A stretch of DNA of 64,000 nt from Chryseobacterium gleum (GCA_945903645.1 CAMDOM010000005.1:30493-94492); one strand, 5' to 3'; shown: positions 8,118-60,851, counted from the first letter of the stretch. A program made the numbers and translations. Notes: a model not told the origin generated them from the letters alone.

Positions 8118-9164
8118 ATGGTTAATCTGCTTATTGCAATAGTTATCATCCTTGCCATCTTAGTGTTGGCGCGTGTGATTCATGTATTTGAATTGGGGTC
8201 TAAACTTCGAGGCGAAGACCCATCCACTATAACCGAGAGTGACAACCGCACGCAAGCTACGTTGCTTGTTTTGGGCGGTATTGCATTTATGGTTTATGTG
8301 TTCTACCAAATTTTTTGGGGACCTGAAATTCTCCCAGAGGCTGCCTCTGAGCATGGAGTGAAAACAGATTTCCTTCTTGGTTTGAGTTTTGTAATAATAC
8401 TTCCTGTATTTTTTATTACCCACATTCTCCTTATATATTTTGGCTACAAATACTTCTACCGCAAAAGCCACAAGTCAGATTTCTTTGCGCATAGCACTAA
8501 ACTTGAGGCTATTTGGACAATCATTCCAACGATTGTACTTTCATCGTTAATCATTTACGGTATTGGTACATGGAATGAAATTACCAGCGATGCTCCTGAA
8601 GAAGCGATTATAGTGGAGTTGTATGCCAAACAATTTGACTGGACCGCTCGTTATGCTGGTGCTGACAATCAATTGGGTGCATCGGGATACCGCTTGATAG
8701 AAGGTGCAAATACCTTAGGACTTGATACCACCGATGCTGCTACGCAGGACGATAAAGTGGTGAGAGGAGAGTTCCACCTTCCAATTGGAAAATCGGTTGT
8801 GTTTAAATTCCATAGCCGCGATGTGTTGCATAGCGCCTACATGCCTCACTTCCGCGCTCAAATGAACTGTGTGCCCGGTATGACCACCCAGTTTCACTTT
8901 GTGCCTACAATTACTTCGGCAGAAATGAAAGCGAAAACTGGAAATCCTGCATTTGAGTATATCCTGTTGTGCAACAAGATTTGTGGCGCTGCTCACAATA
9001 ACATGCAGATGAATATTATAGTAGAGTCGGAAGCGGATTTCAACGCATGGTTGGCGAAGCAAAAAACAGTTGGTGAGCAGAACACTGTTGTTGAAGCAGC
9101 TCCTGCCGATTCGCTAACTGTGACAGCTTTACCAGTTGATAGTGCTGCCACAGCGAAGCTTTAA
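8118..9164 (+). CDS. ctaC: Cytochrome c oxidase subunit II. It has a CuA domain and no fused cytochrome c domain.
   Basis: N-terminal TM helices are followed by the CuA ligand pattern HSAYMPHF ... CNKICGAAHNNM (C-x3-C-x3-H-x2-M). No CxxCH motif is present. Confidence 0.85.
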   Translation: MVNLLIAIVIILAILVLARVIHVFELGSKLRGEDPSTITESDNRTQATLLVLGGIAFMVYVFYQIFWGPEILPEAASEHGVKTDFLLGLSFVIILPVFFITHILLIYFGYKYFYRKSHKSDFFAHSTKLEAIWTIIPTIVLSSLIIYGIGTWNEITSDAPEEAIIVELYAKQFDWTARYAGADNQLGASGYRLIEGANTLGLDTTDAATQDDKVVRGEFHLPIGKSVVFKFHSRDVLHSAYMPHFRAQMNCVPGMTTQFHFVPTITSAEMKAKTGNPAFEYILLCNKICGAAHNNMQMNIIVESEADFNAWLAKQKTVGEQNTVVEAAPADSLTVTALPVDSAATAKL

Positions 9165-20034: not shown

Positions 20035-23000
20035 ATGGCCAGCACAGCGGAACAAAGTCTTCTTTTAGAAAAGCTCGATGCTTTCATCCGAAAATATTAC
20101 CTCAATCAGGTAATACGCGGTGGTCTGCTTAGTGCTGGTCTTATTGTTGGGATGTTTGTTGCGCTCGCGGTTATAGAGCATTTCGGGCATTTTGGCGTAG
20201 CCACGCGCACCATTTTGTTCTACACATTTATTTGCACCGCACTCGCAGCTTTAGGAGTTTGGGTTGGTTTGCCAGCGGTTCATTTAAAACGCATCGGCAA
20301 GGTGCTTGACTATGATGCTGCAGCCATCATTGTTGGAAAACACTTCCCCGCTATAGCCGACAAGTTGCTCAATACGCTTCAATTGCAACGCATGGCGGGC
20401 GGTTCAGGTGCAGGTTCAGAGTTGCTAATGGCCAGCATTGAGCAACGCACAGCCGAGTTGCGACCTGTGCCATTTGTAGCCGCTATAGATTTGAAGGAAA
20501 ACAAACGCTTTCTCAAGTTTGCCCTTCCGCCAGCGCTAGCATTGCTTATGTTGCTCATTATTGCCCCAAGCATGGTGCGCGATAGCACTACACGCATCGT
20601 TAGGCATGGCGTAGCCTTTGAAGACATGGCCCCTTTTCGGTTTGTCGTTGTAAATAGCCAACTGGAAACCGTTGCGCTCCGTGATTTTCCTCTTGAGGTA
20701 CGAATTGAAGGCAATGAAGTGCCAAACGACTTATATATAGAAGTGGATGGTGCCCGTCAAATGATGGTGAAAGATGGTACGGGTCAGTTTGCTTTCACTT
20801 TTCGGCAGCCGCGCGAAAACAAAACATTTCAGCTTTTTGGCAGTGGATTTGGTTCGCAGGAATTCGAGCTAAAAGTGTTTCCAAAACCAACTGTTCTTGC
20901 CTTCGAAATGCAGTTGGACTATCCAGCTTACACTGGGCGAAAAAACGAAACTCGTAGCAATAGTGGTGATTTGCTCATTCCAACAGGAACCAAAGTGACG
21001 TGGAAATTTCGCACAGCCGATACAGAAAAACTCGGGTTCCTTATGGGCGATTCGGTTTATGTGCCACAGCGCATTGATAAGGATGGTTTTTCGTTTGCCA
21101 GACGGTTCAAAATGAGTACAGATTATGCCGTGCTTACCAGCAATGCGTTTCTCAAAAATGCGGATTCGTTGCGCTACACCATTGGCGTAATTCCCGATTT
21201 GTATCCGAGTATAGCAGCCGAAGAAACACCCGATTCGGTCAATGCTAAAAGGCTTTATTTCAATGGGCAAATCAAGGATGATTATGGATTTGCATCCCTA
21301 CGGTTTCGCTATCGGGTGGTGCGCACTGGTCAAGGCGAAGAAGCCATTCAAGAGCAACAGCTATCATTAGCCAAGGGTAAAACCAATGATAATTTCTACC
21401 ATTTCTGGGATTTAAGCCGCATGACACTTGCCCCTGGCGATGTGCTGGAATACTGGTTCGAAGTGTGGGACAGTGATGGTGTAAACGGTAGCAAATCGGC
21501 TCGCACGGACAAACGCACGTATCGCTTGCCAACCCTCGGAGAACTTGCCAAAGAGAATGATGCCCAAGGCGAAAAAATGAAAGACGAGCTTTCTGAAGCT
21601 GTAAAAATGGCGAAGAAAATGCAGAAGGAGTTGGGCAAAATGCAAAAGGAAATGCTGGATAAACAGCAACTCACTTGGGAAGATAAGGCCAAAATGAAGG
21701 ACTTGATTGAGATGCAAAAAGACTTGAAAAAACAAGTGGAAAGCCTCAAACAAGAAAACGAGCAGAAGAACTCAAAAATGAATGAGTTTATGCAGTTTGA
21801 CCCTGCGTTGATGGAAAAGCAGCAGCAGCTCGAAAAACTCTTCGAAGAGGTAATGTCGGACGAGATGAAAGAACTCTTCAAAAAAATGGAAGAGATGATG
21901 GACGAAATGACCAAAGACAAGGCGCAAGAACTCATGGAAGACATGAAGTTGAACAGCGAAGATTTGGAGAAAGAACTGGATAGAAGCTTGGAATTGTTCA
22001 AACAACTTGAGTTTGAGCAGAAACTGGAGCAAACGAAAGAACGCCTTGAAAAACTAGCTGAAGAACAAAATAAGCTTTCGGAAGAATCGCTAAAAAAAGA
22101 AAGCGATAAGGATAAGTTGGCCGAGAAGCAAGAAGAGCTGAGCAAGGAATTTGACGAGGTGAAAAAGGAAATGGACGACCTCGAAAATCAGAATAGCGAA
22201 CTCGAGCGACCAAATAAAATGGACGACCTTGAAGAGGAAAAAGAATCCGTAAGCGAGGAGCAAGAAAAAAGCAAGGAACAACTCGAAAAAGACCAGAAAC
22301 AAAAGGCTTCTGAATCGCAAAAAAACGCAGCCAAGAAAATGGAGAATATGGCTCAAAAAATGAGCGATATGATGTCGAAAATGCAGCAAGAATCCCAAGA
22401 AGAAGATATAGATGCGCTTCGCCAAATAGTGGACAACCTTCTTACACTAAGCTTTGACCAAGAGAAGCTTATGGTAACGGGAAAGAAGACCAACCAAAAC
22501 GACCCGCGCTACACCGAGCTTGCCAGAGAACAGCTAAAGCTAAAAGATGACAGTAAACTCATCGAAGATTCGCTGTACGCGTTGAGCAAACGCGTGCCCC
22601 AGATTGAAACTATTGTGAATCGCGAAATTCGTTCGGTAAATGGTAATATGGGCAAGGCAATACGTTCTATGGCCGAACGCAGAACTCCAGAAGCCACATC
22701 ACGCCAACAGCAAGCGCTAACATCTATCAATAATCTTGCTTTGTTGCTCAGTGAAAGCATTGACCAAATGCAGCAAGCCATGGCACAGGCCTCGGGCAGT
22801 GGTTCGTGCAAGAAGCCCGGAAAAGGAAAAAAGCCTTCGGCATCTACCATGCGTTCGCTTCAAGAACAGCTCAATAAACAAATGGAGCAAATGAAAAAAG
22901 GGATGGAAAAGGGCGGCCAAGAAAAAGGTTCAAAGCCCGGAGGCACCAAACCCGGACAAGGCGGCATGGGAGGAATGAACAAGGAATTTGCAAAAATGGC

Positions 23001-23406
23001 AGCCCAGCAAGAGGCGCTTCGCCAAATGATGCGAGAGTACGAGAACGAATTGAAAAAGCAAACTGGTGGAAAAGGCAGTAGTGGCGACATGGATGACCTC
23101 AGTCGAAAAATGGAGCAAACCGAAACCGACATTGTGAACAAACAGATTACGCGCGAAACCATGATGCGCCAACAGGAGATTCTAACCAAACTATTGGAAG
23201 CCGAAAAAGCTGAGCTAGAACGCGAGCAGGAAGAGCGCAGAGAGTCGCGCGAAGCCAAAGATGAAGACTATGGTAACCCTGAAATTTATTTTGAGTATAA
23301 GAGGCGGAAAAACAACGAAACTGAATTGCTTCGTACCGTGCCCGCCAATCTAAATCCGTTCTATCGGAGCAAAGTGGACGAGTACTTTAAGAAGCAGGTC
23401 GAATAA
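20035..23406 (+). CDS. Large membrane-anchored protein, DUF4175-like, with an extremely Glu/Lys/Met/Gln-rich coiled-coil region.
   Basis: 1123 aa. N-terminal TM helices are followed by a beta-rich region and then about 600 aa of charged low-complexity coiled coil (KMQKE, EEMMDEM repeats) plus a Gly-rich patch. The family name is recalled from memory and not verified. Confidence 0.6.
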   Translation: MASTAEQSLLLEKLDAFIRKYYLNQVIRGGLLSAGLIVGMFVALAVIEHFGHFGVATRTILFYTFICTALAALGVWVGLPAVHLKRIGKVLDYDAAAIIVGKHFPAIADKLLNTLQLQRMAGGSGAGSELLMASIEQRTAELRPVPFVAAIDLKENKRFLKFALPPALALLMLLIIAPSMVRDSTTRIVRHGVAFEDMAPFRFVVVNSQLETVALRDFPLEVRIEGNEVPNDLYIEVDGARQMMVKDGTGQFAFTFRQPRENKTFQLFGSGFGSQEFELKVFPKPTVLAFEMQLDYPAYTGRKNETRSNSGDLLIPTGTKVTWKFRTADTEKLGFLMGDSVYVPQRIDKDGFSFARRFKMSTDYAVLTSNAFLKNADSLRYTIGVIPDLYPSIAAEETPDSVNAKRLYFNGQIKDDYGFASLRFRYRVVRTGQGEEAIQEQQLSLAKGKTNDNFYHFWDLSRMTLAPGDVLEYWFEVWDSDGVNGSKSARTDKRTYRLPTLGELAKENDAQGEKMKDELSEAVKMAKKMQKELGKMQKEMLDKQQLTWEDKAKMKDLIEMQKDLKKQVESLKQENEQKNSKMNEFMQFDPALMEKQQQLEKLFEEVMSDEMKELFKKMEEMMDEMTKDKAQELMEDMKLNSEDLEKELDRSLELFKQLEFEQKLEQTKERLEKLAEEQNKLSEESLKKESDKDKLAEKQEELSKEFDEVKKEMDDLENQNSELERPNKMDDLEEEKESVSEEQEKSKEQLEKDQKQKASESQKNAAKKMENMAQKMSDMMSKMQQESQEEDIDALRQIVDNLLTLSFDQEKLMVTGKKTNQNDPRYTELAREQLKLKDDSKLIEDSLYALSKRVPQIETIVNREIRSVNGNMGKAIRSMAERRTPEATSRQQQALTSINNLALLLSESIDQMQQAMAQASGSGSCKKPGKGKKPSASTMRSLQEQLNKQMEQMKKGMEKGGQEKGSKPGGTKPGQGGMGGMNKEFAKMAAQQEALRQMMREYENELKKQTGGKGSSGDMDDLSRKMEQTETDIVNKQITRETMMRQQEILTKLLEAEKAELEREQEERRESREAKDEDYGNPEIYFEYKRRKNNETELLRTVPANLNPFYRSKVDEYFKKQVE

Positions 23407-30603: not shown

Positions 30604-30681
30604 CAATCAGAGATCCTCAATCGATAATCCTCAATCGCCAATCAGCACTAATTCGTAATTCCTTATTCGTAATTCGTAATT
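30604..30681. repeat. Cluster of short degenerate tandem repeats in intergenic DNA.
   Basis: ATCCTCAATCG occurs twice (30613-30623 and 30627-30637), CAATCAG occurs twice, and ATTCGTAATT occurs three times (30651-30681, partly overlapping). Confidence 0.6.
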
Positions 30682-30701
30682 CATAGTTCTACCTTTGCTC
30701 C

Positions 30702-31856
30702 ATGCGATTTCCGGGAGTTATACGTTCTAAACTGCCTAACGTTGGCACCACCATTTTCACCGTAATGAGCGGCCTAGCCCGCGAGCATGGCGCCATAAAC
30801 CTCTCGCAAGGCTTTCCTGATTTTAGTATTCCTGAGGGCTTACGCAATTTGGTGTCAGAGCACATGCATCTTGGCCACAACCAATACGCACCCATGCAAG
30901 GCGTGTTGGCATTGCGCGAGGCCATTGCCCAAAAGGTAGAAGAACTCTACTCTGCCACCTACGACCCGCAAGAGGAAATAACCATTACTGCCGGGGCAAC
31001 CCAAGCCATTTTCACCGCCATTATGGCCCTAGTGCGAGAGGGCGATGAAGTAATAGTTCTAGAGCCCGCCTACGATTGCTATGTGCCAGCGATTGAACTC
31101 GCTGGGGGCAAAGCTGTTTATGTGCATATGGAACTTACAGGTCCGTTGGTAGATTGGGAACGTGTAAAGCGCCTCATCAATCAGCGCACCCGCATGATTA
31201 TTATCAACACGCCCAACAATCCAACCGGTAGAATTCTTACCGCGCAGGATATGGCCAAATTGCAAAAGCTTACCGAAGGAACAGAGATTATCATTCTCAG
31301 CGATGAGGTGTACGAACACATGCTATTTGATGGATACGAGCATCAAAGCGTGGCGCGTTTCCCTAAGCTAGCCGAGCGGTCGGTGGTGGTTAGTTCATTT
31401 GGCAAAACCTATCATTGCACAGGGTGGAAGGTAGGTTATGTGCTGGCCCCCAAGGAACTGATGAAAGAGTTTCGCAGAACCCATCAGTTCAATGTCTTTT
31501 GTGTCAATACACCAGTGCAGCACGCTTTGGCCGAATATCTTAGCGACAAGGCGCATTATTTGCAATTGGGGGCGTTCTACAAACAAAAGCGCGATTATTT
31601 CTTGGACAAGTTGCAAGGCTCGCGGTTCAAGATAAAACCCAGCGAAGGCACCTACTTCCAATTGCTAGATTATTCCAATATCTCCAACGAAAAGGATACC
31701 GATTTTGCAGTGCGACTTACCAAAGAAGCAGGCGTGGCAAGCATTCCTTTGTCGGTGTTTTACCATAAGCCAACCGAAGGCCATTATTTGAGGTTTTGTT
31801 TTGCCAAAGAAGACGAAACACTCGAACGCGCTGCTCAAATATTATCTCGCCTATGA
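30702..31856 (+). CDS. Class I/II PLP-dependent aminotransferase, YbdL-like (methionine/glutamine transaminase type).
   Basis: The N-terminus SKLPNVGTTIFTVMSGLAREHGAINLSQGFPDF matches the YbdL type. NTPNNPTG is present, and SFGKTYHCTGWKVGY contains the PLP lysine. Confidence 0.8.
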   Translation: MRFPGVIRSKLPNVGTTIFTVMSGLAREHGAINLSQGFPDFSIPEGLRNLVSEHMHLGHNQYAPMQGVLALREAIAQKVEELYSATYDPQEEITITAGATQAIFTAIMALVREGDEVIVLEPAYDCYVPAIELAGGKAVYVHMELTGPLVDWERVKRLINQRTRMIIINTPNNPTGRILTAQDMAKLQKLTEGTEIIILSDEVYEHMLFDGYEHQSVARFPKLAERSVVVSSFGKTYHCTGWKVGYVLAPKELMKEFRRTHQFNVFCVNTPVQHALAEYLSDKAHYLQLGAFYKQKRDYFLDKLQGSRFKIKPSEGTYFQLLDYSNISNEKDTDFAVRLTKEAGVASIPLSVFYHKPTEGHYLRFCFAKEDETLERAAQILSRL

Positions 31857-32650
31857 ATCCGTTGCGCATCACCATTTGCCAACAATCGCTACTTTGGGAA
31901 CAACCACAAGCGAATTTAGACCATTGGACAAGCGTGCTTTCTGCGCTTAAAGGAAAAACGGACCTCATTGTTTTGCCCGAGGTGTTTACCACTGGATTTA
32001 CTATGAATGTGTCTGCCTTTGCCGAGTCTATGCATGGCCCAACAATCGCTTGGATGCGCGAAATGGCGCAGGAACTTCAGGCCACAATTACGGGTAGTTT
32101 TATTTGCGAAGTACCAGCCATAGAGTCTAGCAACTATTTCAATCGGTTGGTTTGGATGAATCCAGATGGTAGTCATTACCATTACGACAAACGACATCTG
32201 TTCAGTTTTGCAGGAGAGCACTTTCATTTTTCAGCTGGCGATGCGCGTCTTATCGTAGAACTGAAAGGTTGGCGAATTTGCCCGCTCATCTGCTACGACC
32301 TTCGTTTTCCAGTATGGAGCAGAAACAATGCGAATTCTCCCTACGACTTGTTGCTTTATGTGGCCAACTGGCCCGAAGCGCGCGCAGCAGCTTGGAACAC
32401 ATTGCTCTCCGCCCGAGCGCACGAAAATCAATGCTATGTAGCAGGTGTAAACCGCATTGGGCTCGATGGAACAGGAATTCCCTACAGTGGCGATAGTAAA
32501 GTGATTGACCCACGAGGCGCCTTGCTGGCCGCCATTCCCGCGCATCAAGCGGGCATAGAAACCGTTATATTGGATGGTAACGACCTAATAGACTATCGCC
32601 AGAAGTTTCGTGTGTTGGAAGATGCCGATAGATTTACATTGAACAATTGA
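31853..32650 (+). CDS. Carbon-nitrogen hydrolase family amidohydrolase, omega-amidase / YafV-like.
   Basis: I prefer the ATG at 31853, which forms an ATGA overlap with the aminotransferase stop. The Glu-Lys-Cys triad context is LPEVFTTG, YDKRHLF and CYDLRFP. Confidence 0.75.
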   Translation: MNPLRITICQQSLLWEQPQANLDHWTSVLSALKGKTDLIVLPEVFTTGFTMNVSAFAESMHGPTIAWMREMAQELQATITGSFICEVPAIESSNYFNRLVWMNPDGSHYHYDKRHLFSFAGEHFHFSAGDARLIVELKGWRICPLICYDLRFPVWSRNNANSPYDLLLYVANWPEARAAAWNTLLSARAHENQCYVAGVNRIGLDGTGIPYSGDSKVIDPRGALLAAIPAHQAGIETVILDGNDLIDYRQKFRVLEDADRFTLNN

Positions 32651-33261
32651 TGGGAAAACGTTTCGCCCAAATGCTCTCGGTTGTATTTCAGCCGTTGTTC
32701 ATTCCATTGTATTCCATTTTTCTGTTGTTCAATTCCAATACGTTCATCACCTATGCCGTTTCAGAAGAGGTGCAACACTTTATTTATGCTGTTGTAGCCA
32801 TCAATTCTATTGTGCTGCCTATGGCGGTGTTTATGTTTCTGTTAAAACGAGGGGTCATTCAAAGCTTGCACATGCATACTTCCCAAGAGCGTTCGTTGCC
32901 GTTCTTATCAGTCATGGCATTTCAAATATCCACGTTCTATTTGTTTCATAAAGTTCCAGTTCCTGCTATTATTCCAAACCTTGTTTTGGGCGGAGTGGTG
33001 AGCATCGCAATGGCGCTTTTCATCAATTTCAAATGGAAAATTAGCATTCACATGCTAGGCATGGGCGGACTTGTGGGCACTTTTCTTGGGCTAGCATTGC
33101 GCTACCAAGTAGATGCCTTGCAGTTGGTTTCGGCCCTAGTGCTGTTAAGCGGTTTGGTGGGTTATGCTCGCCTTCGCCTCAATGCTCATACTCCAGCACA
33201 AGTGTATGCTGGGTTTTTGTCAGGAGTAGCGCTACTCACAGCTGTTGTGGTGGTGTTTTAA
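32650..33261 (+). CDS. Polytopic membrane protein, possibly a PAP2-like phosphatase.
   Basis: About 6 TM helices. KISIHMLGMGG and GYARLRLNAHTPAQVYAG resemble the PAP2 C2/C3 motifs. The ATG at 32650 overlaps the stop codon of the preceding gene. Confidence 0.45.
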   Translation: MGKRFAQMLSVVFQPLFIPLYSIFLLFNSNTFITYAVSEEVQHFIYAVVAINSIVLPMAVFMFLLKRGVIQSLHMHTSQERSLPFLSVMAFQISTFYLFHKVPVPAIIPNLVLGGVVSIAMALFINFKWKISIHMLGMGGLVGTFLGLALRYQVDALQLVSALVLLSGLVGYARLRLNAHTPAQVYAGFLSGVALLTAVVVVF

Positions 33262-33324
33262 TCCGCTTAGCATAATTTCAATCGTTAGCTCGCATCATCT
33301 ATTTTTGTTGCTCATAGAAATCAC

Positions 33325-33633
33325 ATGGAGATTACAGATAAAACCGTTGATGAACTTGCCCACTTGGCGCGCTTGCAGTTTGAAGGTGCCGAAAAGGAAC
33401 GTATCAAAAAAGATTTGAATCGTATCCTTGGTTTCATGGAAAAACTCAACGAATTGGACACTGAGGGCGTGGAACCACTCATTTATTTGTCGGAAGAAGT
33501 AAATGTGATGCGCTATGATGAGTCGCACCAAACCATTACGCAAAATCAAGCTCTCAAAAATGCACCGAAGCGCGATAGCGATTACTTCAAAGTGCCGAAG
33601 GTGTTGAAAAACCCCTCAGAAGGCAAAGAGTAG
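33325..33633 (+). CDS. gatC: Asp-tRNA(Asn)/Glu-tRNA(Gln) amidotransferase subunit C.
   Basis: 102 aa. VDELAHLARLQFEGAEKERIKKDLNRILGFMEKLNELDTEGVEPL is typical of GatC. Confidence 0.85.
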   Translation: MEITDKTVDELAHLARLQFEGAEKERIKKDLNRILGFMEKLNELDTEGVEPLIYLSEEVNVMRYDESHQTITQNQALKNAPKRDSDYFKVPKVLKNPSEGKE

Positions 33634-33671
33634 TAAATTGGATTTCGGAAATAGACTAAAATTCCCCTAAT

Positions 33672-34796
33672 TTATCTCCCTACAGATAACCGATTAGCAA
33701 AATATCTACAAAAACTAAAAAGTAGTTCGTTAGCAATTTGAGGATTATCCTTTTTTAAGTCATCAAGAAATTTCCTACGAATAATAAGTACTTTTCCTCG
33801 TGTAACAGAATAGACATCAGAAGTTCTTTTTTGAGAGTCTAAAAAAATAGAAAGTTCACCAAACATATCGCCTTTTTCTAAAAGAGTAACTTGAAAATCT
33901 TTTTTTACTTCTTCGAAAATCCCTTCAAGTATAACCGCTATCTCTTCTTCTACTAAATCATCCCGAAATATTTTTTTGCGCGGTGGTACCTGAATAATTA
34001 AACCATAATTTGTAATCACATCCAATGCCTCTTTGGATAAATTATTTAAAAAAGAATAGGTTATTGACTGTTCTGATATTTTTTCCTGAAGCTGTTGCCA
34101 GATAATATCTTTATTAATTACAAATTTATTATCCTGTTTAATAATAGTTCGTACTAATGAAATATCATCTATTCCCGTATTTTTATAATAGGTTTTAGCC
34201 TGGCTAACTAGTGGAGAATTTTCTTTGATCAGGTATTCGTAGTCAGAACAGATAAACATCATTGGAATTCTTACGCCATCAGAAGTGAAAATTAAATTAC
34301 CTGCATAAGGTCTGAATCCCAGTTTGCGATAGTGATTCACGAGCCCGGGCGAACAATACTGAAAGCTATACTTAACTTTAGACTGATAGGCATAATCATA
34401 GCTTGTTTTTACTAAAGCAGGGAGAATAAGCAAACCGCGGAACTTCCTGGAAATAATTAATCGTCCAACTTCGCAAAGGAGTAATTCGGGAGTAAAAGGG
34501 AATAATTTAAGAGAGAAACGCTCTTTTAGCTGTTCTGAAGCATCTCCAAAACGAAAAGTATCAACACGCATACTACCTGAAATTTCTTCGCCCGACTTTG
34601 TATATAAAATAGCAGAATCTAGCGAATCATCTTCCGGATCTTTGATCCATTTTTTTATATGGTCAACATTAGTTGGATTTGCCTTGTTAAGTTCTGTAAC
34701 ATACACCTGGTAACGTAAGCGATATATTTTTTCTTTTTCTTGAGGGGTACGTGCAAAATATACTTTTTCGAAACGCGTAAGTAAATCTAATAACAT
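33672..34796 (-). CDS. Fusion protein. An N-terminal GNAT-fold N-acyltransferase of the N-acyl amino acid synthase / FeeM-like type is joined to a C-terminal cyclic-nucleotide-binding domain.
   Basis: The N-terminal ~190 aa contain YRLRYQVYVTEL, CEVGRLIISRKFRG and HYRKLGFRPY. The C-terminal ~130 aa contain the phosphate-binding cassette GDMFGELSIF...RTSDVYSV and the following helix. Local G+C is about 30%. Confidence 0.6.
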   Translation of the reverse strand: MLLDLLTRFEKVYFARTPQEKEKIYRLRYQVYVTELNKANPTNVDHIKKWIKDPEDDSLDSAILYTKSGEEISGSMRVDTFRFGDASEQLKERFSLKLFPFTPELLLCEVGRLIISRKFRGLLILPALVKTSYDYAYQSKVKYSFQYCSPGLVNHYRKLGFRPYAGNLIFTSDGVRIPMMFICSDYEYLIKENSPLVSQAKTYYKNTGIDDISLVRTIIKQDNKFVINKDIIWQQLQEKISEQSITYSFLNNLSKEALDVITNYGLIIQVPPRKKIFRDDLVEEEIAVILEGIFEEVKKDFQVTLLEKGDMFGELSIFLDSQKRTSDVYSVTRGKVLIIRRKFLDDLKKDNPQIANELLFSFCRYFANRLSVGR

Positions 34797-34805
34797 AAGT
34801 GTTAT

Positions 34806-35618
34806 TTAAACAATTCCCGTTACAGCAAAAACACTTACGAAAACAAATGGTTCAGTTTTTTGAGCGTTACAAAAAGTATCAATTTCATTAATGAGCTGGT
34901 TCGCTTCTGATGTGCCAACAATCATGGCTTTGAAGCGGGTTGTAATGTTTATGTAATCTGCTAGTTTAAAATCAAGAGAAGAAAGAGGAAGTACTTTAAA
35001 ATCAACTTTGCTAAATCCTGCCTGTTGCATTAATGATGGAAGTTTTCTACCAATATAACGATCTCCACCATATTTCATTTGTGCTTCGCAAGCCAATTGA
35101 TTTAATTTTTCGAATGCGGGGCAAGCTGGCTCAATCAATTGCATACCAGCATCTACATCAAGCACCGTTACCATTCCTCCTTTTTTACAAACTCTATTAG
35201 CTTCCTGTAATGCTTTTAATGGATTATTCAGATGTTGATAAATCAATCTGTTATAGATAAAATCATATGTGTTATTCTGGAAAGGCAATTCATAAGCACT
35301 TCCTTCAAAAAAAGAAAGATTAGAATGATGAGGTTTTACGAGTTTATCGGCCGCTTCAAGTAATTCTTTACTTGCATCCAAGCCATGCGCAGTGCCTTTT
35401 GGGACCAAGTCTCCAAGAATCCCGGTAACGAATCCCGGTCCGCATCCAATCTCAAGTACTGAGGCATTCTCGGGTAACTGCAAGGAGTCAATGAAATTTA
35501 TTTCCTGTTCTTTTGCAATGGTGGCCTGAGTATATAGTCTTTTTAATTCTTTTTCGCGGCCCTGTTCACTAAACATATCAAAATCGTATGAATAGCCTTG
35601 TTTGGTCATTTCACTCAT
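34806..35618 (-). CDS. Class I SAM-dependent methyltransferase.
   Basis: Motif I is VLEIGCGPGFVTG, followed by the acidic post-I residue (GLDAS) and post-II/III segments (YDFIYNRL, KKGGMV). It lies 9 nt upstream of the acyltransferase fusion gene and is A+T-rich. Confidence 0.8.
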   Translation of the reverse strand: MSEMTKQGYSYDFDMFSEQGREKELKRLYTQATIAKEQEINFIDSLQLPENASVLEIGCGPGFVTGILGDLVPKGTAHGLDASKELLEAADKLVKPHHSNLSFFEGSAYELPFQNNTYDFIYNRLIYQHLNNPLKALQEANRVCKKGGMVTVLDVDAGMQLIEPACPAFEKLNQLACEAQMKYGGDRYIGRKLPSLMQQAGFSKVDFKVLPLSSLDFKLADYINITTRFKAMIVGTSEANQLINEIDTFCNAQKTEPFVFVSVFAVTGIV

Positions 35619-35900
35619 AGCTCTATCTTTTCAGAAATTAATTTCTTCAGATATAATAATTGAAACTATTATTATATTATTTGTCAATAATAACAATATT
35701 TTTCAGATAAAGCGCTTGTTTAAATTTCATCCGAAAATTATTCTATAAGTCAATAATCACAGAAGAATTAAAAAATGATGATGAAACGTCCATTTATATT
35801 TAATGTCACCCCGATTGACACTTCTGCGTACTATTAAAAATTTAACGCAGCAGAATATGGCAGAAAAAATAAAAAAATCATTAGTTTCTAAACGAAAATC

Positions 35901-38900
35901 CTACCGAATTACGGTTACAGTTCCAGCTTGGTGAACGCCTCCATTGTTTTCTTGACCTCCCCACACTTCCCCGTTTCCGAACATGCCATCTATTTTCCAT
36001 ACGTAGGCACCCTGCGGTACGGGCTTACCTGCATAGCGACCATCCCATCCTTCTCCAGGTTGTCCATTATCCAATAGGCTAGATTCCCAAATCTTGTTGC
36101 CCCATTCATCAAAAATCATACATCGATAGGAGCTAAGTCCACGGCCTTTGGGCAGAAAGATACTCACTTGTGGGTCTGGGTCGCCTACAATAAGAGCATT
36201 AGGAACAAAGAGTGTTCCCGCAAATTCAACAGGAATGTAGCGGCTTATTGTATCCACACAACCGTTTACATCAACTATGGCCAAGGTTACGAACTTGTTG
36301 CCATATAAGTCGTATTGATGCGTAGCAGGCGAGTTAACAGAGGTCCCGCCATCGCCAAAATCCCACCAGTTTCCAACATAAGAAGGGGTTGATGTGTTGA
36401 AGAAAGCTACCGTTCCGTCCGAAATGGGCTCGGTTACTGGTTCATATTCAAAGTCGGCCACAGGATTGTTCCATACAGTAATAATGTTCGAAGCAAGAAG
36501 TGTATCTGCACAGCCGCCCAATCCTTCTGCAATTAGTGTTACCGAGTAGATTCCACCATCTTCAAAAATGTGAATAGGGTCTCGATTTGAAGAACCATCC
36601 GCATCTTGAAAATCCCAAATATAGCTCGAAGAATTGACGGAGCTATTTGTAAAATTTACAGTCCATTGCTGACATCCAGTGGGATTCGACCACGTGAAAT
36701 TCGCGTTAACAGTTGGGAAAACTTCAAATAGCTGCGTGGAAGTATCTACACATCCATACACATTAGTCACGATAAGTTGACCTGTGTATTGACCAATGGT
36801 ATCGTAAGCGGTAGATGTATTTGCAGTTGTGGCGCTATCCCCATTTCCAAATATCCATTGCCAAGCAACCGCACCAATGGATTGATCGGTAAACGAAACC
36901 GCAGCGGGCACAAAACACGATTGCGCGGCCGACATGGTATAATTGCTTATAGGATTGGGCAGAACGTTTACTGGTCCAGCTGCCGAGGTACCGCAACCGT
37001 TAGAACTAGTCACGGTAAGTGAGAATACATAGGTTTGCGCAGTAGAGTAGAGGTAAGTAGTGTTTTGGTTGTTGTTGGTCGCACCATCACCAAAGGCCCA
37101 TTCCCACGCTACTATACTTCCCGAACTAATACTGGAAGAATCGGTAAATACTACTTCTTCGCCAAAGCAAACATCAGTTACACTGTAGGCAGCATCGGGC
37201 AAAGGAAATACTGTAGCAGTGCGGGTTATGGTATCGGTACAACCACCAGCGGCTGTTACTACCAATTCAACAGTATAAACTGAATCTAAAGAGTAAACTA
37301 AGTTTGGATTTTGCTGTACAGAAGTAGCACCATTGCCCAATGTCCATTGCCATGTAATTATTGTTCCATTCACGGAGGACAGATCGATAAATGACGTAGG
37401 TTGAAATAAGCAAGTATCGTTGGCTGTAAAGTTTGCCGTGGGCACGGGGTTAACCACAACCACAGCCAATGCGGTATCGGTGCAACCAGAGCCACTTTCC
37501 ACCACAAGGGAAATATCGTATGTCCCTGAGTTGGTATATAAAAATGATGGATTGGTGTCTGTGCTCAACACTTCGTCCAAGTTCCAGTTCCAGCTCACAA
37601 TACTGTCTGGCCCAAGCATGGTTGAGCTACTCAAAAATGCTGAAGTATCTCCAAAACAGACATCAGCAGTGGTAAAGTTTGCTTGTGGTGCAGGGTTTAC
37701 AACTACCACTACGGTATCCGTGTTTTGGCAGGCCAGCAATTGCACTGTAACAATATATGTTGTGGTAACGGTTGGGCTAACTAATGGATTTTGGGCATTG
37801 GGGTCTGAGAGTCCAACTGGAGGAAACCAACTGTAGGTATCGCCACCAGTTGCCACCAGTTGAGCTGATTCGTTTTCACAAATGGTGAAATCTTGTCCAG
37901 CATTTACGTTTAATGGAGCAACTTGAAGTGTATCAACAGATTGATATGTGAATGAACACCCGTTGTCATCCTCTATAATGAGAGTTGGAATGTATGCTCC
38001 AAGTTGGGTATAAATGTGTGTAGCAGAAGATCCATTGCCCAAAGATCCATCTCCAAAATCCCAGGTGTAAATAGTAGCATTGGTAGTGTTAGAAATATAG
38101 GTTATCTCATACGGTGGGCAACCTATTGTATCAGGGAAAAATGTGAAATCACCAGAAGGACCCGATAGTTGAATTAAGTCGGGCATCACTAAGGTGTCTT
38201 TGCAGCCATTGAGGTTAGTTACAATGAGACGTACCGTGTAAATTCCAGATTGTGTATAGATATGAGATGGATTCTGAATCGTAGAGGTGCTGCCATTACC
38301 AAACTCCCAAAGCCAAGAAACTGCGTCAGTACTAGCATCTGTAAATGCCACAAGCAATGGAGGGCAGAAAGCAAATGTTGGGAAAGCAGTAAAATTCGCG
38401 GATGGATATGCAATGTCAATCAACCCAAATTGCGTAAGTGTGCTATCACAACCGCTACTATTAGTGGCAGTAAGTGAAACAGTATACGTTCCTAGTGCGC
38501 TGTAGCTATGTGTCGGATTAGTGTTTGTGGAGGTGGTTCCATCTCCAAAATCCCACAAATAGCTGACGGCATTAGAGGAGGATAGATTTGTGAATTGGAA
38601 AACTTCACCAATGCATCCCGAAGTTTCAGCTACGGAAAAATCAGGAGTTGGGTAATCATTAAACCGTACAATAGAGTCCAAAGTGATACTGCGAACACAG
38701 CCTTGATTGCTGGTAGCTGTTAATGTAACATCATAGTTTCCTTGAGTAGTATAGATGTGATTTGGATTTGGGTTAGTTGATGTGTTCCCATCACCAAAAT
38801 CCCAAAGCCATGAAACTATCGCACCAGTTGGGGTCGACAAATCGTTAAATTCTACTGTGAGTGCGTCACAACCATAAGCCGTATCTATTTCAAAATTGGG

Positions 38901-41222
38901 ATTAACGCCATTAGTGGTAATTAGATTAGGCATAATTAACGTATCGCGACATCCGTTGATATCTGTAACAATTAATCGAACGGTGTATGTACCGATATTG
39001 TTAAAAGTTCGAGTAGGATTTTGCGAGGTTGAGTTTGAGGCACCACCACCAAAGTTCCATTGCCATGACACAGCATCAATAGATGTGTTTGTGAAACTTA
39101 CTGCCAATGGGACGCAACCTGTAGTAACGGATGGGGTGAAATCTGCAACTGGGTCGGTTACATAAATAGTATCGCTGTCACGATCCGTACAACCGAATGT
39201 TGTATTGGTAACCGTCAAATCGACATAATATGTGCCGGGCCCAGGATAAACGTATGTAAGAAGAGCATCTGTAGTATTCAGTGTACCATCACCAAAATTC
39301 CATTCAAACGTATCGTCACCAATCGAGCCATTTGAAAAGGTAAATGAATTTGGAGTGTTGCAGTTAAAACTAATCTGGTTTATTGCAATTGGTGGATTCA
39401 CATAAATCATGTTGTTGGCCACTACAGTGTCAGCACATCCATTGTTCAAGGCAATGAGCGTAACGGTAAAAAAGCCAGTGTCTTGGTAAATATGACTCGG
39501 ATTTTGTTCTACATCAGAGGCCATATCCCCAAAGTCCCAATACCAATCAGTTGCACCAGTCGAAAGATTGACAAAGTCAAACTCTCCAGGACAGATGACC
39601 ACTGGCGTTTGCACAAAATTGGCTATGGGAGGTGTTGATACTATTATGTAACCCGTTCGAACAACGGTATTGGAACATCCTAAATTGTTGGTTATAGTCA
39701 AAGAAACATCGTAGTTTCCAGTATTTACATAAGTATGAGATGGGTTTGCAAGCGTTGAAGTGCTGCCATCGCCAAAATCCCAGGCATACGATACTATTGG
39801 AGTAGCAGAGACGCTTAAATCCGAAAAATTTACCTCCAACGGAACACAAAATCCAAAAACATCAGGTAAAAAATCGGCTGTTACTGCCGTAATATTAATA
39901 TCGGTGCTATCGGTTATGCTGCATCCCTGAGTATTGGTTGCAGTAAGGCTTGCAGTGAAAATTCCGTTACTTAAATACGTGTGCAATGGGTTTGTTTGGG
40001 TGGAAGTGTTCCCATCCCCAAAATCCCAGAAATAGGTTAGACCTGCCCCTACTGAATTATTATCGAAATTAACGGGAAATGGCGTTATACACCCAGCTGT
40101 TTGGTCAGGAACGAAATCAACAAAAGGAATTCCACCAATGGTTATATAACTGGTTTTCAATTCTGTGCCTTGGCACGAACCAGCATAAAAGGCAAATAGA
40201 GAAACGGTATAATTGCCGGGCGCTGTGTACAAATGTGATGGATTTTGTTCTGTGGAAGTTGTCCCATCACCAAAGTCCCATTGCCATGTAGTAGGTTGAG
40301 GAGAACTTAAATCTGCAAAATCAATAGGAGTCCCTAGACATCCGTTTGTGCTCGTAGTAGAAAAATCAATATTTACATCTTCTACAACGGTAATGAAATC
40401 TGGATTAAGCAATATAGTGGTGCATCCAAGTTGGTCCGTAGCAGTTAGACTAACGTCAAATTCACCATCAATGGTATAATTATGTGATGGTGTGGCATTG
40501 GTTGAAGTGCCACCATCTCCAAAATTCCATAAATACGCAAGTGCTCCTGTACCACCAGCAGAAGTGTTGGTGAAGCTTACATTAACTGGAGTCAAACAAG
40601 CCACCTGAGGGTTGCCATCAAAAGCAACTATTGGGCGGTTATTATTTGAGTTAATGAACCCAGGAAAGGTTTGATTGCTAGCACACCCATTGGCATCAAC
40701 AAGCAAAAGGGTTACTCCAAATGTGCCAGAGGTAGTGTAAGAATACGTTGGATTTTGAGCGGTGGAAGTTCCTCCATCTCCAAAATCCCATGACCAAGAG
40801 GTAATTGGAGAATCGCCCAAAATTGAGTTGTCCGTGAAATTGACTGGAAATGGAAAACACCCTGTAGTTTGCACAGCAGAAATATCTGGGTTGGGTGGAG
40901 TAAAAACCGTGATAAATGCGGTTTTTACTTCTGTATCTGTTCCTCCTGGTCCAGATATAGTGAGTGTAACCGTGTAGATGCCTGGGTTTATATAACTGGC
41001 CGATGGGTTTTGGGTAGTCGAACTGTTGCCATTACCCAAATTCCATTGGTAGGTCAGACCTACTCCAACACTAGTATTCTGAAAATTGACAATTAACGGA
41101 CTACAACCAGAACTTACCGGAGCAGTAAAATCTGCAGTTACTTGAGAAAATGCACAGTCACCCCAAAGTAATCCAGTAAAAAGAAGTAGAGAAGCATATA
41201 AACGTGAAGTAGATATAGACAT
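35901..41222 (-). CDS. Giant cell-surface protein with about 19 PKD repeats and a T9SS type B (gliding-motility-associated) C-terminal sorting domain.
   Basis: The W(D/N)FGDG.TS motif recurs about every 85 aa, and I counted 19 copies. The C-terminus is FVPNALIVGDPDPQ...FLPKG...IFDEWGNKIW...GWDGRYAGKPVPQGAYVWKI. I prefer the Met at 41222, which gives the signal peptide MSISTSRLYASLLLFTGLLWGDCAFSQ. The track ORF extends to 41336. Confidence 0.85.
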   Translation of the reverse strand: MSISTSRLYASLLLFTGLLWGDCAFSQVTADFTAPVSSGCSPLIVNFQNTSVGVGLTYQWNLGNGNSSTTQNPSASYINPGIYTVTLTISGPGGTDTEVKTAFITVFTPPNPDISAVQTTGCFPFPVNFTDNSILGDSPITSWSWDFGDGGTSTAQNPTYSYTTSGTFGVTLLLVDANGCASNQTFPGFINSNNNRPIVAFDGNPQVACLTPVNVSFTNTSAGGTGALAYLWNFGDGGTSTNATPSHNYTIDGEFDVSLTATDQLGCTTILLNPDFITVVEDVNIDFSTTSTNGCLGTPIDFADLSSPQPTTWQWDFGDGTTSTEQNPSHLYTAPGNYTVSLFAFYAGSCQGTELKTSYITIGGIPFVDFVPDQTAGCITPFPVNFDNNSVGAGLTYFWDFGDGNTSTQTNPLHTYLSNGIFTASLTATNTQGCSITDSTDINITAVTADFLPDVFGFCVPLEVNFSDLSVSATPIVSYAWDFGDGSTSTLANPSHTYVNTGNYDVSLTITNNLGCSNTVVRTGYIIVSTPPIANFVQTPVVICPGEFDFVNLSTGATDWYWDFGDMASDVEQNPSHIYQDTGFFTVTLIALNNGCADTVVANNMIYVNPPIAINQISFNCNTPNSFTFSNGSIGDDTFEWNFGDGTLNTTDALLTYVYPGPGTYYVDLTVTNTTFGCTDRDSDTIYVTDPVADFTPSVTTGCVPLAVSFTNTSIDAVSWQWNFGGGASNSTSQNPTRTFNNIGTYTVRLIVTDINGCRDTLIMPNLITTNGVNPNFEIDTAYGCDALTVEFNDLSTPTGAIVSWLWDFGDGNTSTNPNPNHIYTTQGNYDVTLTATSNQGCVRSITLDSIVRFNDYPTPDFSVAETSGCIGEVFQFTNLSSSNAVSYLWDFGDGTTSTNTNPTHSYSALGTYTVSLTATNSSGCDSTLTQFGLIDIAYPSANFTAFPTFAFCPPLLVAFTDASTDAVSWLWEFGNGSTSTIQNPSHIYTQSGIYTVRLIVTNLNGCKDTLVMPDLIQLSGPSGDFTFFPDTIGCPPYEITYISNTTNATIYTWDFGDGSLGNGSSATHIYTQLGAYIPTLIIEDDNGCSFTYQSVDTLQVAPLNVNAGQDFTICENESAQLVATGGDTYSWFPPVGLSDPNAQNPLVSPTVTTTYIVTVQLLACQNTDTVVVVVNPAPQANFTTADVCFGDTSAFLSSSTMLGPDSIVSWNWNLDEVLSTDTNPSFLYTNSGTYDISLVVESGSGCTDTALAVVVVNPVPTANFTANDTCLFQPTSFIDLSSVNGTIITWQWTLGNGATSVQQNPNLVYSLDSVYTVELVVTAAGGCTDTITRTATVFPLPDAAYSVTDVCFGEEVVFTDSSSISSGSIVAWEWAFGDGATNNNQNTTYLYSTAQTYVFSLTVTSSNGCGTSAAGPVNVLPNPISNYTMSAAQSCFVPAAVSFTDQSIGAVAWQWIFGNGDSATTANTSTAYDTIGQYTGQLIVTNVYGCVDTSTQLFEVFPTVNANFTWSNPTGCQQWTVNFTNSSVNSSSYIWDFQDADGSSNRDPIHIFEDGGIYSVTLIAEGLGGCADTLLASNIITVWNNPVADFEYEPVTEPISDGTVAFFNTSTPSYVGNWWDFGDGGTSVNSPATHQYDLYGNKFVTLAIVDVNGCVDTISRYIPVEFAGTLFVPNALIVGDPDPQVSIFLPKGRGLSSYRCMIFDEWGNKIWESSLLDNGQPGEGWDGRYAGKPVPQGAYVWKIDGMFGNGEVWGGQENNGGVHQAGTVTVIR

Positions 41223-41336
41223 ATGTAATGGATACAGCGGCTTCGTACGAACAGCTAAGTATAAAGTTCCTAAGCGGGCAAAGAAAAAAACTTTGAGTAA
41301 CGCTACCATTGTGATTCCTACATTTGGAGGGTTCAA

Positions 41337-41939
41337 ATGATGAAAACACGCATTTTAGTCATCTGTTTTATTGGCATATGCACAGCAACCCTGTGCAATG
41401 CGCAATTGGTTGATGGCATTATTGGAGTTAAACGCACGAAAGTTCAGCAGTTGCTGCGTCCTTACCATATTTTAGACTACCAGCAAGAAAGAGTTGTGTA
41501 TTCGTTTGATAAAGGAGTTCGTCAAACAGTAATATATGAGAACGATACGTGCTTTACTTTCTTTTGGGCCGTGGATAAAAACCATTTGCCCACTTTTTTT
41601 GGGCAACTCCAAAAATCTGGCTACTCTATGCGAGGGGATACCTCGTTTGTAAAAGGTGATATTCTCCTAGAAAAACGCATGTTAGATTCGGGTAAGGCAA
41701 TTTTATTTTACGCTGTTCAAGATTATGCAAAGGCCATTATTGCTAACAATCGTAATTCCGGAAACGAATCGGACTCAGGAAAGAAAGTAAGAGGGCCCGT
41801 TTTACTTGAATTGCCACGAATGCAACAGGCCATTTTAGCCGAAAAGATGGATACAGTTCCAAAAACTAAAAACCCGATTCGAAATTGGGTAGGAGCGGAG
41901 GAAAAGGCTGTAAGTATTTTGGGTTGGATAAAGGAATAA
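41337..41939 (+). CDS. Hypothetical secreted protein.
   Basis: 200 aa with the signal peptide MMKTRILVICFIGICTATLCNAQ. I recognise no motif. Confidence 0.5.
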   Translation: MMKTRILVICFIGICTATLCNAQLVDGIIGVKRTKVQQLLRPYHILDYQQERVVYSFDKGVRQTVIYENDTCFTFFWAVDKNHLPTFFGQLQKSGYSMRGDTSFVKGDILLEKRMLDSGKAILFYAVQDYAKAIIANNRNSGNESDSGKKVRGPVLLELPRMQQAILAEKMDTVPKTKNPIRNWVGAEEKAVSILGWIKE

Positions 41940-59484: not shown

Positions 59485-60396
59485 TTAGTTCCAATTCAGT
59501 CCTGCAATTAAACCTTTGTGGTCTGAACCAGGAAGTACCACCGTGGTACAAAATGCTGAAGAGAAATGCTTTGAGTGAAGAATATGATCTATCGGAATCA
59601 GAGGAATGCCGAAATCCATTGGATAGGTAGCGAGAAATCCTTTTCTGGACGCTGTCATACCGCTGATTGTTTTGATAGACTGGAAATCCTGCGCCCATGG
59701 AACTACGTTCAAGTCGCCTACCAAAATAGCGGGAACATTATTCCGTGCTATTTCGCGGGCGACAGTACTCATTTGGAGGTTTCTTTTAATCGTGTTGTTA
59801 GGAAACGCTGGGGTAAGCGTATGCAATGTCCAAAGATCAAATAGAGCTTCATTCTTCTTTAATCTTATTTTGATTAAAGGGATTGCCTCACAGTAAACGA
59901 TAGTGTCACTCACTATTGGAAAGCGAGAGTAAACAGATAGTCCATAGCAGCAATGGGCGTGAGGAAGCGTAACCGAATATGGATGGCTTTCGGATAGTGC
60001 AGCGTTTAACGCTTCATTCCAATTTTTGCTCACTTCTAAAACAGATATCAGGTCACATTTAGAATTAATGATCGAAGTAATTGACTGGGAGTAATTCGTG
60101 TTTTCATGAAACACGTTGAAAATGCCTACTCTAATATTACAAGAAGATGTAATTTTTTGAGCTGTTGGTAAGAATGGGTAAAGCTGAAGGACAAGTATTC
60201 CGCAAGTAGTTAAGGAGGAAATCCTAAGCCACTTGTATTTCCAGTATAACGCTACAATTAACAAACACACGTTTAGCGCTAAAAAGTGCATAGAAAAAGC
60301 CTGAAGTAGCTCAAAAATCCAAATGCCAGCAGGAAAGCAAATGGCGATAATAAAAAGTAGTTGGGACAAGGAAGCCCACTTGGAATCAAAACTCAT
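59485..60396 (-). CDS. Membrane-anchored endonuclease/exonuclease/phosphatase (EEP) family protein.
   Basis: I prefer the ATG at 60396. About 4 N-terminal TM helices are followed by EEP motifs FNVFHEN, LVGDLNVVPW and GSDHKG. Confidence 0.65.
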   Translation of the reverse strand: MSFDSKWASLSQLLFIIAICFPAGIWIFELLQAFSMHFLALNVCLLIVALYWKYKWLRISSLTTCGILVLQLYPFLPTAQKITSSCNIRVGIFNVFHENTNYSQSITSIINSKCDLISVLEVSKNWNEALNAALSESHPYSVTLPHAHCCYGLSVYSRFPIVSDTIVYCEAIPLIKIRLKKNEALFDLWTLHTLTPAFPNNTIKRNLQMSTVAREIARNNVPAILVGDLNVVPWAQDFQSIKTISGMTASRKGFLATYPMDFGIPLIPIDHILHSKHFSSAFCTTVVLPGSDHKGLIAGLNWN

Positions 60397-60851
60397 AGTT
60401 GAGTATTTTTTACTGAGAAAAACAAGAAATTGCAAAGCAATGGAAATAGAAAATAGTATTCATTTTGGACGAAAAAGTGACGCGAATTATTTTTTCAAGT
60501 AAGAAGGGACTTGTGAAAATCACCCAAATAATTCTCTGAAAATTAAAATTAAATTTATTTATCGAATTCATATCAACTATTTTAAGTACATAACAGTATA
60601 ATAAACAGTCTAATTTTCAGATAAATTAATTTTTTCATCAAAGTGAAGCCTTATAAAGGAAGATATCTGAAAAACAAAAATATCATAATTAAGGTCGGTA
60701 AAATTCAAGCATTCAACGTTCAGATATAAACAAATGTCTAATTTAGTGGCCTGTAAAATTTGTTTTGGAGTATTATCACGGTATATTGGTAACCCAAATA
60801 TGTTGACAGGTTCTTAGATTTAGCTATCAATTGATAAACTTAACTTTTACT

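Follow-up and report, generated by a model that had tools for sequence, protein, structure and literature searches.

The locus examined here raises two questions: what is made by a pair of A+T-rich genes lodged between gatC and the 3' end of a PKD-repeat adhesin gene, and how the pair came to lie there. The genes are part of a 64,000-nt stretch of Chryseobacterium gleum DNA (GCA_945903645.1 CAMDOM010000005.1:30493-94492), referred to below, at its full length, as the window. One gene encodes a class-I S-adenosylmethionine (SAM)-dependent methyltransferase (MT), and the other a 374-aa fusion protein in which an N-terminal acyltransferase domain resembling FeeM is followed by a C-terminal cyclic-nucleotide-binding domain (CNBD). 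The function that we favour, with confidence slightly better than even, is N-acylation of an amino acid or amine by a FeeM-type enzyme gated by a cyclic nucleoside monophosphate (cNMP), together with dedicated methylation by the partner MT. That the genes were acquired horizontally was demonstrated.

The genes concerned, the block that was transferred and the two flanking genes are as follows.

34806-35618, minus strand: MT gene, 270 aa, first in the operon (open reading frame (ORF) call)
33672-34796, minus strand: FeeM-CNBD fusion gene, 374 aa, second in the operon (ORF call)
33668-35891, minus strand: transferred module (leader, MT gene and FeeM-CNBD gene), delimited as the block common to unrelated genomes
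33325-33633, plus strand: gatC (Pfam GatC, 80.6 bits)
35901-41336, minus strand: PKD-repeat adhesin gene, 1811 aa, with 19 PKD_4 stretches

The original prediction, made from the sequence alone, had placed two minus-strand genes 9 nt apart between gatC and the adhesin gene, and these coordinates were confirmed by the ORF calls.

The N-Terminal Acyltransferase Domain

34182-34775, minus strand: N-terminal acyltransferase domain, residues ~8-205 (Pfam FeeM match at residues 23-166)

The peptide blocks quoted earlier for the 374-aa product were all found in its translation. On their basis the N-terminal half had been assigned to GNATs of the N-acyl-synthase type and, within these, to the PEP-CTERM-associated subfamily; the first part of the assignment stood, the second did not. 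A Pfam scan of the fusion protein gave significant matches to two acyltransferase models, FeeM (PF21926; 44.6 bits against a curated cut-off of 27, residues 23-166) and Acetyltransf_5 (PF13444; 26.1 bits against a curated cut-off of 22.4). In the same scan, Autoind_synth (PF00765) was without a match at E ≤ 1, and Acetyltransf_1 gave no match. Because Autoind_synth is not matched, the N-terminal half is FeeM-like, not LuxI-like, at the profile level.

The model for PEP-CTERM/exosortase-associated acyltransferases (TIGR03694) reached 25.7 bits, far below its cut-off of 111.95, and this over residues 8-77 only; no exosortase gene was present in the genomic contexts examined. Identity as an OlsB equivalog was also rejected, at 28.9 bits against a cut-off of 350, this being nonetheless the best NCBIfam match.

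The AlphaFold2 (AF2) model of the full-length fusion protein (pLDDT 83, pTM 0.81) was confident except for the linker at residues ~220-250. Since a fold search with the full-length model gave CNBD matches only, residues 1-205 were modelled separately, with a pLDDT of 91.7. The top Foldseek matches of this N-terminal model were the acyl-homoserine lactone (AHL) synthases BjaI, MesI, RpaI, TofI and LasI together with FeeM (2g0b), generic GNATs coming after them. The best E-values were those of the LuxI-type AHL synthases and the highest TM-scores those of FeeM (2g0b_D: E 1.4e-8, TM 0.70 by query and 0.79 by target, root-mean-square deviation (rmsd) 4.0 Å), with an identity of ~14% in the structural alignment. 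A PDB sequence search with the domain yielded weak alignments to RpaI and BjaI. By its predicted fold, the N-terminal half is a GNAT-superfamily member of the FeeM/LuxI branch.

Conservation was counted over 127 aligned full-length members of the family, 21–49% identical to the query. Residues R28, Y29, E35, D56, R77, R120, Y156, G160 and D185 were kept in 117–126 of the 127. E109 and R112, the putative counterparts of the FeeM catalytic Glu and its partner Arg, were invariant among the 13 closest members.

Besides the Pfam match and the LuxI-like GNAT fold, the domain has in common with FeeM and other N-acyl amino acid synthases (NAS) an N-terminal R-x-R-Y...E...D-x-x-D motif and an E-x-G-R-L strand motif. 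The known enzymes of this kind are stand-alone proteins of ~180–250 aa, whereas the fusion adds ~170 aa of helical linker and CNBD.

The Cyclic-Nucleotide-Binding Domain

33750-33992, minus strand: CNBD core, residues 269-349 (cNMP_binding match)
33813-33863, minus strand: phosphate-binding cassette F312-G-E-L-S-I-F-L-D-S-Q-K-R-T-S-D-V328 (family conservation)

The cNMP_binding model (PF00027) matched residues 269-349 with 35 bits against a curated cut-off of 27.5, and the C-terminal end of the protein is formed by the C-helix (residue 374). PDB sequence matches of this domain were to the CNBDs of PKG and CRP, with PycTIR also among them, and in the alignments of this search the cassette coincided with the FGE...R of the Plasmodium PfPKG CNBDs. 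Fold matches of the AF2 model in Foldseek were CRP/GlxR, at an rmsd of ~3 Å, and also the CNG/HCN CNBDs.

Within the cassette, G313 was conserved in 127/127 family members, E314 in 120, R324 in 124, T/S325 in 105 and A/S326 in 116, and the structural glycines G292 and G309 in 126 each; G313, E314 and R324 were invariant among the 13 closest members. Canonical CNBDs use the Gly-Glu and Arg-Thr/Ser-Ala positions for contacts with ribose and cyclic phosphate, and the R-T-A/S cassette is present in cAMP-preferring and cGMP-preferring domains alike. The cNMP site looks functional as judged from its residues. The Crp-type module with a retained phosphate-binding cassette that had been read in the C-terminus was thus upheld, with a score above the Pfam cut-off and binding residues conserved across the family.

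One relative, P0052 (546 aa; from the NCBI metagenome record MDTC01, in a cluster of 2 members), was found to have the architecture FeeM-CNBD-GGDEF. In it a diguanylate-cyclase domain stands behind the cNMP sensor, tying two second-messenger systems to the acyltransferase.

The Methyltransferase and Its Pairing with the Fusion Gene

The MT matched the Pfam models Methyltransf_11/25/31/23 with E-values of 1e-15 to 1e-19 (~70 bits for Methyltransf_11/25). Its best solved relative is 3mgg, a protein whose function is not known.

Wherever a family member had 39% or more identity to the query, a homolog of the MT was encoded directly upstream of it on the same strand. The order MT gene then fusion gene was observed in 12 distinct contexts without common flanking genes (39–99% identity), with gaps of −4 to 25 nt and a single one of 91 nt. 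The same pairing was seen from the MT side, as three of three chosen MT homologs (42–52% identical) have a FeeM-CNBD gene 3–6 nt downstream. In cultured Dethiosulfatarculus sandiegensis SPR (L015), a more distant methyltransferase gene lies downstream of the fusion gene instead.

The three domains were also found in single-chain metagenomic proteins, in the order MT-FeeM-CNBD (P0022, P0159) and in the order FeeM-CNBD-MT (P0119). In each of them the MT portion could be aligned with the whole of the window MT, including the subfamily-specific C-terminal GGDR..GRKL...AGF segment. The partnership of the two enzymes, which had been supposed from their adjacency, is thus borne out by the 12 contexts and by the fused proteins.

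Ratios of nonsynonymous to synonymous divergence (dN/dS) were 0.06–0.08 for the MT gene and 0.05–0.09 for the fusion gene. Both genes are under strong purifying selection and, because of these low values, can be said to have stayed functional.

Horizontal Acquisition of the Module

The islet is the stretch of 2.2 kb with the lowest G+C content in the window, 33.5% versus ~44.4–44.5% (sd 2.5; z = −4.3). The G+C content at third codon positions (GC3) was 24–28% in the MT and fusion genes versus 50–53% in gatC and the aminotransferase gene. The 60-nt samples in which the low G+C content had first been noticed gave, when recomputed, 26.7% (34021-34080) and 33.3% (34501-34560) for the islet and 43.3% (33361-33420) for gatC; for the adhesin gene (36001-36060) the recount yielded 60.0%, the earlier estimate being ~58%. 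The non-coding segment 35619-35900 was, as stated earlier, still more A+T-rich than the islet genes (24.8% G+C).

Horizontal acquisition had been proposed from composition. It was demonstrated by an empty site in a close relative and by a 96% identical copy of the module in unrelated contexts of ~33% G+C. The empty site was located by a metagenome scan with GatC; exact-sequence look-up of GatC gave no match. The relative, a metagenomic contig (L035) whose GatC is 96% identical, is collinear with window positions 30648-33633 (93.6%) and 35893-41851 (88%) and lacks the module, the stop codons of its gatC and adhesin genes being only ~40 nt apart. The pair is thus not syntenic in relatives. Comparison with L035 at the level of single bases showed that the module sits inside the spacer, both halves of which are still recognisable.

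33634-33667, no strand: left remnant of the gatC/adhesin spacer (insertion junction), aligning with the left part of the L035 spacer
35892-35900, no strand: right remnant of the spacer (insertion junction), ACGAAAATC, the counterpart of TTCGAGAATC, which in L035 directly precedes the adhesin stop codon

The module 33668-35891 was recovered with 96.3% nucleotide identity over 2228 bp in L025-L028, L012 and L115; in the L025-type context it lies between metK and the gene for a CHU_C protein. Copies with 90% identity were present in L004-L006, between a relA/spoT-type gene and terC, and in L013. The flanks of the L025-type, L004-type and L013 copies have nothing in common with those in the window. 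In the L025-type and L004-type genomes the module (~33% G+C) matches its flanks (33–34%), while in the window it does not, and for this reason the lineage of the window is regarded as the recipient and a lineage of ~33% G+C as the likely source. Synonymous divergence (dS) of the module from the L025 copy was 0.06–0.10, below the divergence of the host from L035. The records of L012 and L013 are titled 'Chitinophaga pinensis'; a G+C content of ~33% is unlike that species, and the label is probably a placeholder taxonomy.

Compositional mismatch was also observed elsewhere. In L031 (6001-7955; Desulfobacter sp. metagenome-assembled genome (MAG), GCA_036881925.1), where a type I restriction-modification (R-M) system is nearby, the module has 31.4% G+C versus 48.7% in the flanks, and in L007 (7204-9116) it has 44.0% versus 35.1%. 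These mismatches suggest repeated, independent transfers, including transfers across phyla.

Regarding the manner of movement, neither terminal inverted nor terminal direct repeats were found at the junctions 33668 and 35891, comparison of the window junctions with the L035 empty site revealed no target-site duplication, and no recombinase gene was present in the contexts examined. The sole tRNA of the window lies 9 kb from the islet, so the earlier statement that no integrase, tRNA or flanking direct repeat accompanies the pair was accurate. Searches of IMG/VR viral contigs, of PLSDB plasmids and of GenBank phages gave no relatives of the module. The limits of the module are not the same in all contexts: there is a variation of 70–90 nt at the 5' end, and the 3' end is 41–45 nt longer elsewhere, ending in the window 4 nt past the stop codon. 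A DNA fragment that became integrated illegitimately or through micro-homology would fit better than a site-specific element.

Several kinds of vehicle were considered and rejected. An integron cassette, an insertion sequence or transposon and an integrase island were set aside on account of the missing repeats, duplication, recombinase and adjacent tRNA and of ends that differ between contexts, and a prophage or plasmid origin on account of the missing viral, plasmid and phage relatives. The pair of empty and filled sites represents a well-documented case of a functional operon crossing genomes of very different composition without recognisable mobility machinery.

The Leader Region

35619-35891, minus strand: A+T-rich 5' leader/promoter region, 273 nt, 24.5% G+C, travelling with the module
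35671-35695 and 35737-35761, no strand: 25-nt direct repeat in two copies, 80% identical and 66 nt apart, each with TTGAC

About 200 nt upstream of the MT start codon (ATG) were kept in all four near-identical contexts, and both copies of the 25-nt repeat fall within this conserved part of the leader. The repeat is a possible regulator-binding site. The 273-nt leader had no Rfam match at E ≤ 1, and scans of it for sigma-70-type promoters and terminators, which do not model Bacteroidota promoters, remained at chance level.

Breadth of the Family and Other Neighbourhoods

An exhaustive profile search returned 562 representatives (50%-identity clusters) of the FeeM-CNBD family at E ≤ 1e-30, and among the best 150 of these most are full length. 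A word-indexed search returned 13 clusters with the same architecture. Relatives carry, as names given by their sources, only 'hypothetical protein', 'predicted GNAT family N-acyltransferase' or generic cNMP-binding-domain labels. The family is chromosomal and widespread.

In contexts of Acidobacteriota/Holophagales type (L016-L020; for example L019, 11153-13375), a 740-aa protein is encoded directly downstream of the fusion gene. It combines two CNBDs, an NTE P-loop-like domain and a patatin phospholipase domain, with 63–91% identity across the five loci. In Solirubrobacterales MAGs (L022, 7956-9851, minus strand, and L023), the divergent neighbour of the fusion gene encodes a pyridoxal phosphate-dependent decarboxylase with a C-terminal CNBD of its own, which is a possible supplier of the amine acceptor. 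From their domains, the recurring theme of these distant-branch neighbours appears to be lipid or amine chemistry under cyclic-nucleotide control.

In the L025 context, metK (7096-8349) is the gene directly upstream of the module, and in L001 (1192-2355) it lies within 5 kb. It is outside the transferred block, and its position may be a coincidence or a context favourable for SAM supply.

Transporter genes were seen at or near the module in L011 (4926-5987), L003 (3579-4646), L007 (5541-6869) and L033 (4097-5908). They belong to the AI-2E family (PF01594) in two cases and to the MFS and OPT families; they are possible product exporters, in an inconsistent pattern.

Proposed Function

In the following scheme, the donor and the acceptor of the acyl group, the methylated position, the nucleotide and the direction in which it gates the enzyme are all inferred. 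By homology, an enzyme of the FeeM/NAS type would acylate an amino acid or amine on its amino group, with acyl-ACP or acyl-CoA as the donor of the fatty acyl chain. The C-terminal CNBD would couple this activity allosterically to the cAMP or cGMP level of the host; because the CNBD ends the protein, the helical linker would have to relay the signal back to the catalytic domain. As no cyclase is linked to the genes, the signal is assumed to stem from the cNMP pool of the host itself. The MT would modify the substrate or the product, for example by forming a methyl ester or by N- or O-methylation. A methylated lipid or signal of the N-acyl amino acid type would result, made only on a second-messenger cue. 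With a conserved leader of its own and, as proposed, no need for a further dedicated gene, the module would work after landing in unrelated genomes.

A bolder form of this scheme, which we regard as unlikely in its entirety, is a portable converter. A rise in cAMP or cGMP would lead to an N-acyl amino acid, which would be capped as a methyl ester to give a membrane-permeant, AHL-like molecule of the N-acylated amino acid methyl ester (NAME) type, and the converter would spread between phyla as a 2.2-kb plug-in without a recombinase of its own.

Several points weigh against gated N-acylation with dedicated methylation. At the sequence level the resemblance to FeeM is modest (44.6 bits), and a profile-versus-PDB sequence search with the N-terminal domain did not retrieve the FeeM PDB entry. 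In the wide alignment, E109 was kept in 72/127 members and R112 in 90/127, reflecting either an alignment problem or real divergence. The MT fits no characterised NCBIfam equivalog (BioC, UbiE/MenG, ArsM, Mtf2 and others were far below their cut-offs). A nucleotide cyclase gene was absent from the module and its neighbours in all contexts examined. The triple fusions are singletons on short metagenome contigs, where frameshift artefacts are possible in principle; because two different domain orders occur, a simple read-through artefact is less likely. The chemistry proposed for the family as a whole is a prediction from sequence and models.

Alternative Explanations

The module might instead remodel membrane aminolipids, with an OlsB/GlsB-like first-step N-acyltransferase forming a lipid of the ornithine, glycine or lysine type, OlsG-like N-methylation of the head group and a cNMP tuning membrane composition. 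This would agree with OlsB as the best NCBIfam match, with the CNBD-patatin phospholipase as a conserved neighbour in Acidobacteriota, with a chromosomal and widespread family and with the fact that aminolipids are common in Bacteroidota. The OlsB score, however, is a small fraction of its cut-off, no O-acyltransferase gene of the OlsA/GlsA or PlsC type was found beside the module in the contexts examined, and a dispensable, recently transferred two-gene islet would be an odd carrier for core membrane-lipid synthesis; we hold this explanation to be decidedly unlikely. If SAM were the acyl acceptor, a LuxI-like synthase could make an autoinducer of the AHL type under cNMP control. LuxI-type synthases have the best Foldseek E-values (the CoA-dependent BjaI, MesI and RpaI, plus TofI and LasI), they make a diffusible N-acylated amino-acid derivative, two of them (RpaI and BjaI) were aligned weakly at the sequence level, and metK adjoins the module in the L025 context and is nearby in L001. 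The fusion protein nevertheless lacks an Autoind_synth match while passing the FeeM cut-off, its highest TM-scores are to FeeM, no gene for a LuxR-type receptor was present in the contexts examined, and metK is not part of the transferred block, where the MT alone would account for a link to SAM. Such a synthase is considered very improbable.

A similarly low probability is given to the possibility that the CNBD-like domain binds a ligand other than a 3',5'-cyclic nucleotide, or none, and serves in dimerisation or as a scaffold, so that the enzyme would not be second-messenger gated. Many sensor domains of the Crp/Fnr superfamily do bind other ligands, the Pfam score of 35 bits is modest and no cyclase is linked to the module; but superfamily members that do not bind cNMPs typically lack the cassette residues, whereas here the Gly-Glu...Arg-Thr/Ser-Ala residues that contact ribose and phosphate are conserved across diverged members, and neighbouring genes in other phyla carry canonical CNBDs of their own. 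An anti-phage or conflict module, in the form of a Pycsar-style cNMP-activated effector or a GNAT toxin on a mobile islet with the MT as modifier or immunity partner, appears scarcely credible. It would suit a small, A+T-rich, horizontally moving islet, the resemblance of the CNBD to Pycsar effectors in PADLOC (E 1e-5 to 1e-6), the presence of PycTIR among the PDB matches and the type I R-M system near the module in L031. Yet the PADLOC matches are restricted to the CNBD (residues 250-359) and the generic MT core, the module and its flanks contain no cyclase gene, pyrimidine cyclases adjacent to the effector as in Pycsar included, and no antitoxin-like gene is present. The effector domain, being of the FeeM/LuxI type, is moreover neither a killing domain (TIR or transmembrane) nor a GNAT that acetylates tRNA, and housekeeping genes, not defence islands, surround the module. 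The lowest credence is given to a cNMP-dependent protein acyltransferase. Its precedent is the mycobacterial cAMP-regulated lysine acetyltransferase (Rv0998/MSMEG_5458), in which a CNBD and a GNAT-fold acyltransferase share one polypeptide, the CNBD precedes a GNAT of Acetyltransf_1 type, protein lysines are modified with acetyl-CoA, and cAMP binding relieves auto-inhibition. This enzyme is the best mechanistic precedent for gating, but its domain order (CNBD then GNAT) is the opposite of that found here (GNAT then CNBD). The GNAT of the fusion protein is of the FeeM/Acetyltransf_5 type without an Acetyltransf_1 match, the mycobacterial structures were absent from the PDB sequence matches at E ≤ 1 and from the 50 listed fold matches of the N-terminal domain, and the conserved partner is a methyltransferase of the small-molecule type.

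Relation to Known Systems and Significance

For N-acylation coupled to methylation, a pathway precedent is offered by the nasY clusters of Stieleria, proposed to make methylated N-acyl (dehydro)tyrosines, in which the NAS gene has a gene for a class-I methyltransferase (UbiE-like in S. neptunia) as its neighbour (PMC12479983). The logic of acylating and methylating an amino acid is likely the same in both. The Stieleria clusters depend in addition on ThiF-like and nitroreductase genes and are without a CNBD, whereas the module described here consists of exactly two genes and moves as a unit. The NAME class would be the product expected of an NAS together with a carboxyl methyltransferase, a resemblance at the level of the hypothetical product only, and the genes for its biosynthesis have reportedly not yet been identified (PMC11580390).

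The original prediction had not recognised the pair as a described system. In full-text literature searches of incomplete coverage, no description was found of the FeeM-CNBD architecture, of the MT partnership or of the behaviour as a minimal mobile operon. Both domains, the idea of an NAS with a tailoring methyltransferase and the idea of a CNBD-regulated GNAT are already known. To our knowledge, a single mycobacterial protein acetyltransferase is the only precedent so far for a cNMP-gated GNAT.

N-acyl amino acids and their relatives act as bacterial signals, antibiotics, surfactants and host-receptor ligands. If the proposed function is correct, a cyclic-nucleotide sensor borne by the synthase itself would place the output of a lipid signal under direct post-translational control by a second messenger. 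This would be a new regulatory logic for N-acyl amino acid synthases as an enzyme class, in a family of hundreds. The MT partner, sometimes within the same polypeptide, predicts a specific product and could provide candidate genes for methylated N-acyl amino acids of unassigned biosynthesis. The FeeM-CNBD family is large, conserved and experimentally tractable.

Other Features of the Window

A second patch of low G+C content (30–35%) was noted at window positions 60001-61000, centred on the intergenic segment 60436-60830. This segment is flanked by an ORF for a 316-aa membrane-anchored protein and by the gene for a 343-aa secreted protein, whose C-terminus, read by eye only, resembles a tail-fibre/S74-type chaperone domain.

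A 1123-aa ORF at 20035-23406 (plus strand) has a very long, coiled-coil-like middle part of low complexity, rich in Glu, Lys, Gln and Met. The extreme AT skew at 21.5–23.5 kb, with values of up to 0.52, is due to this composition.

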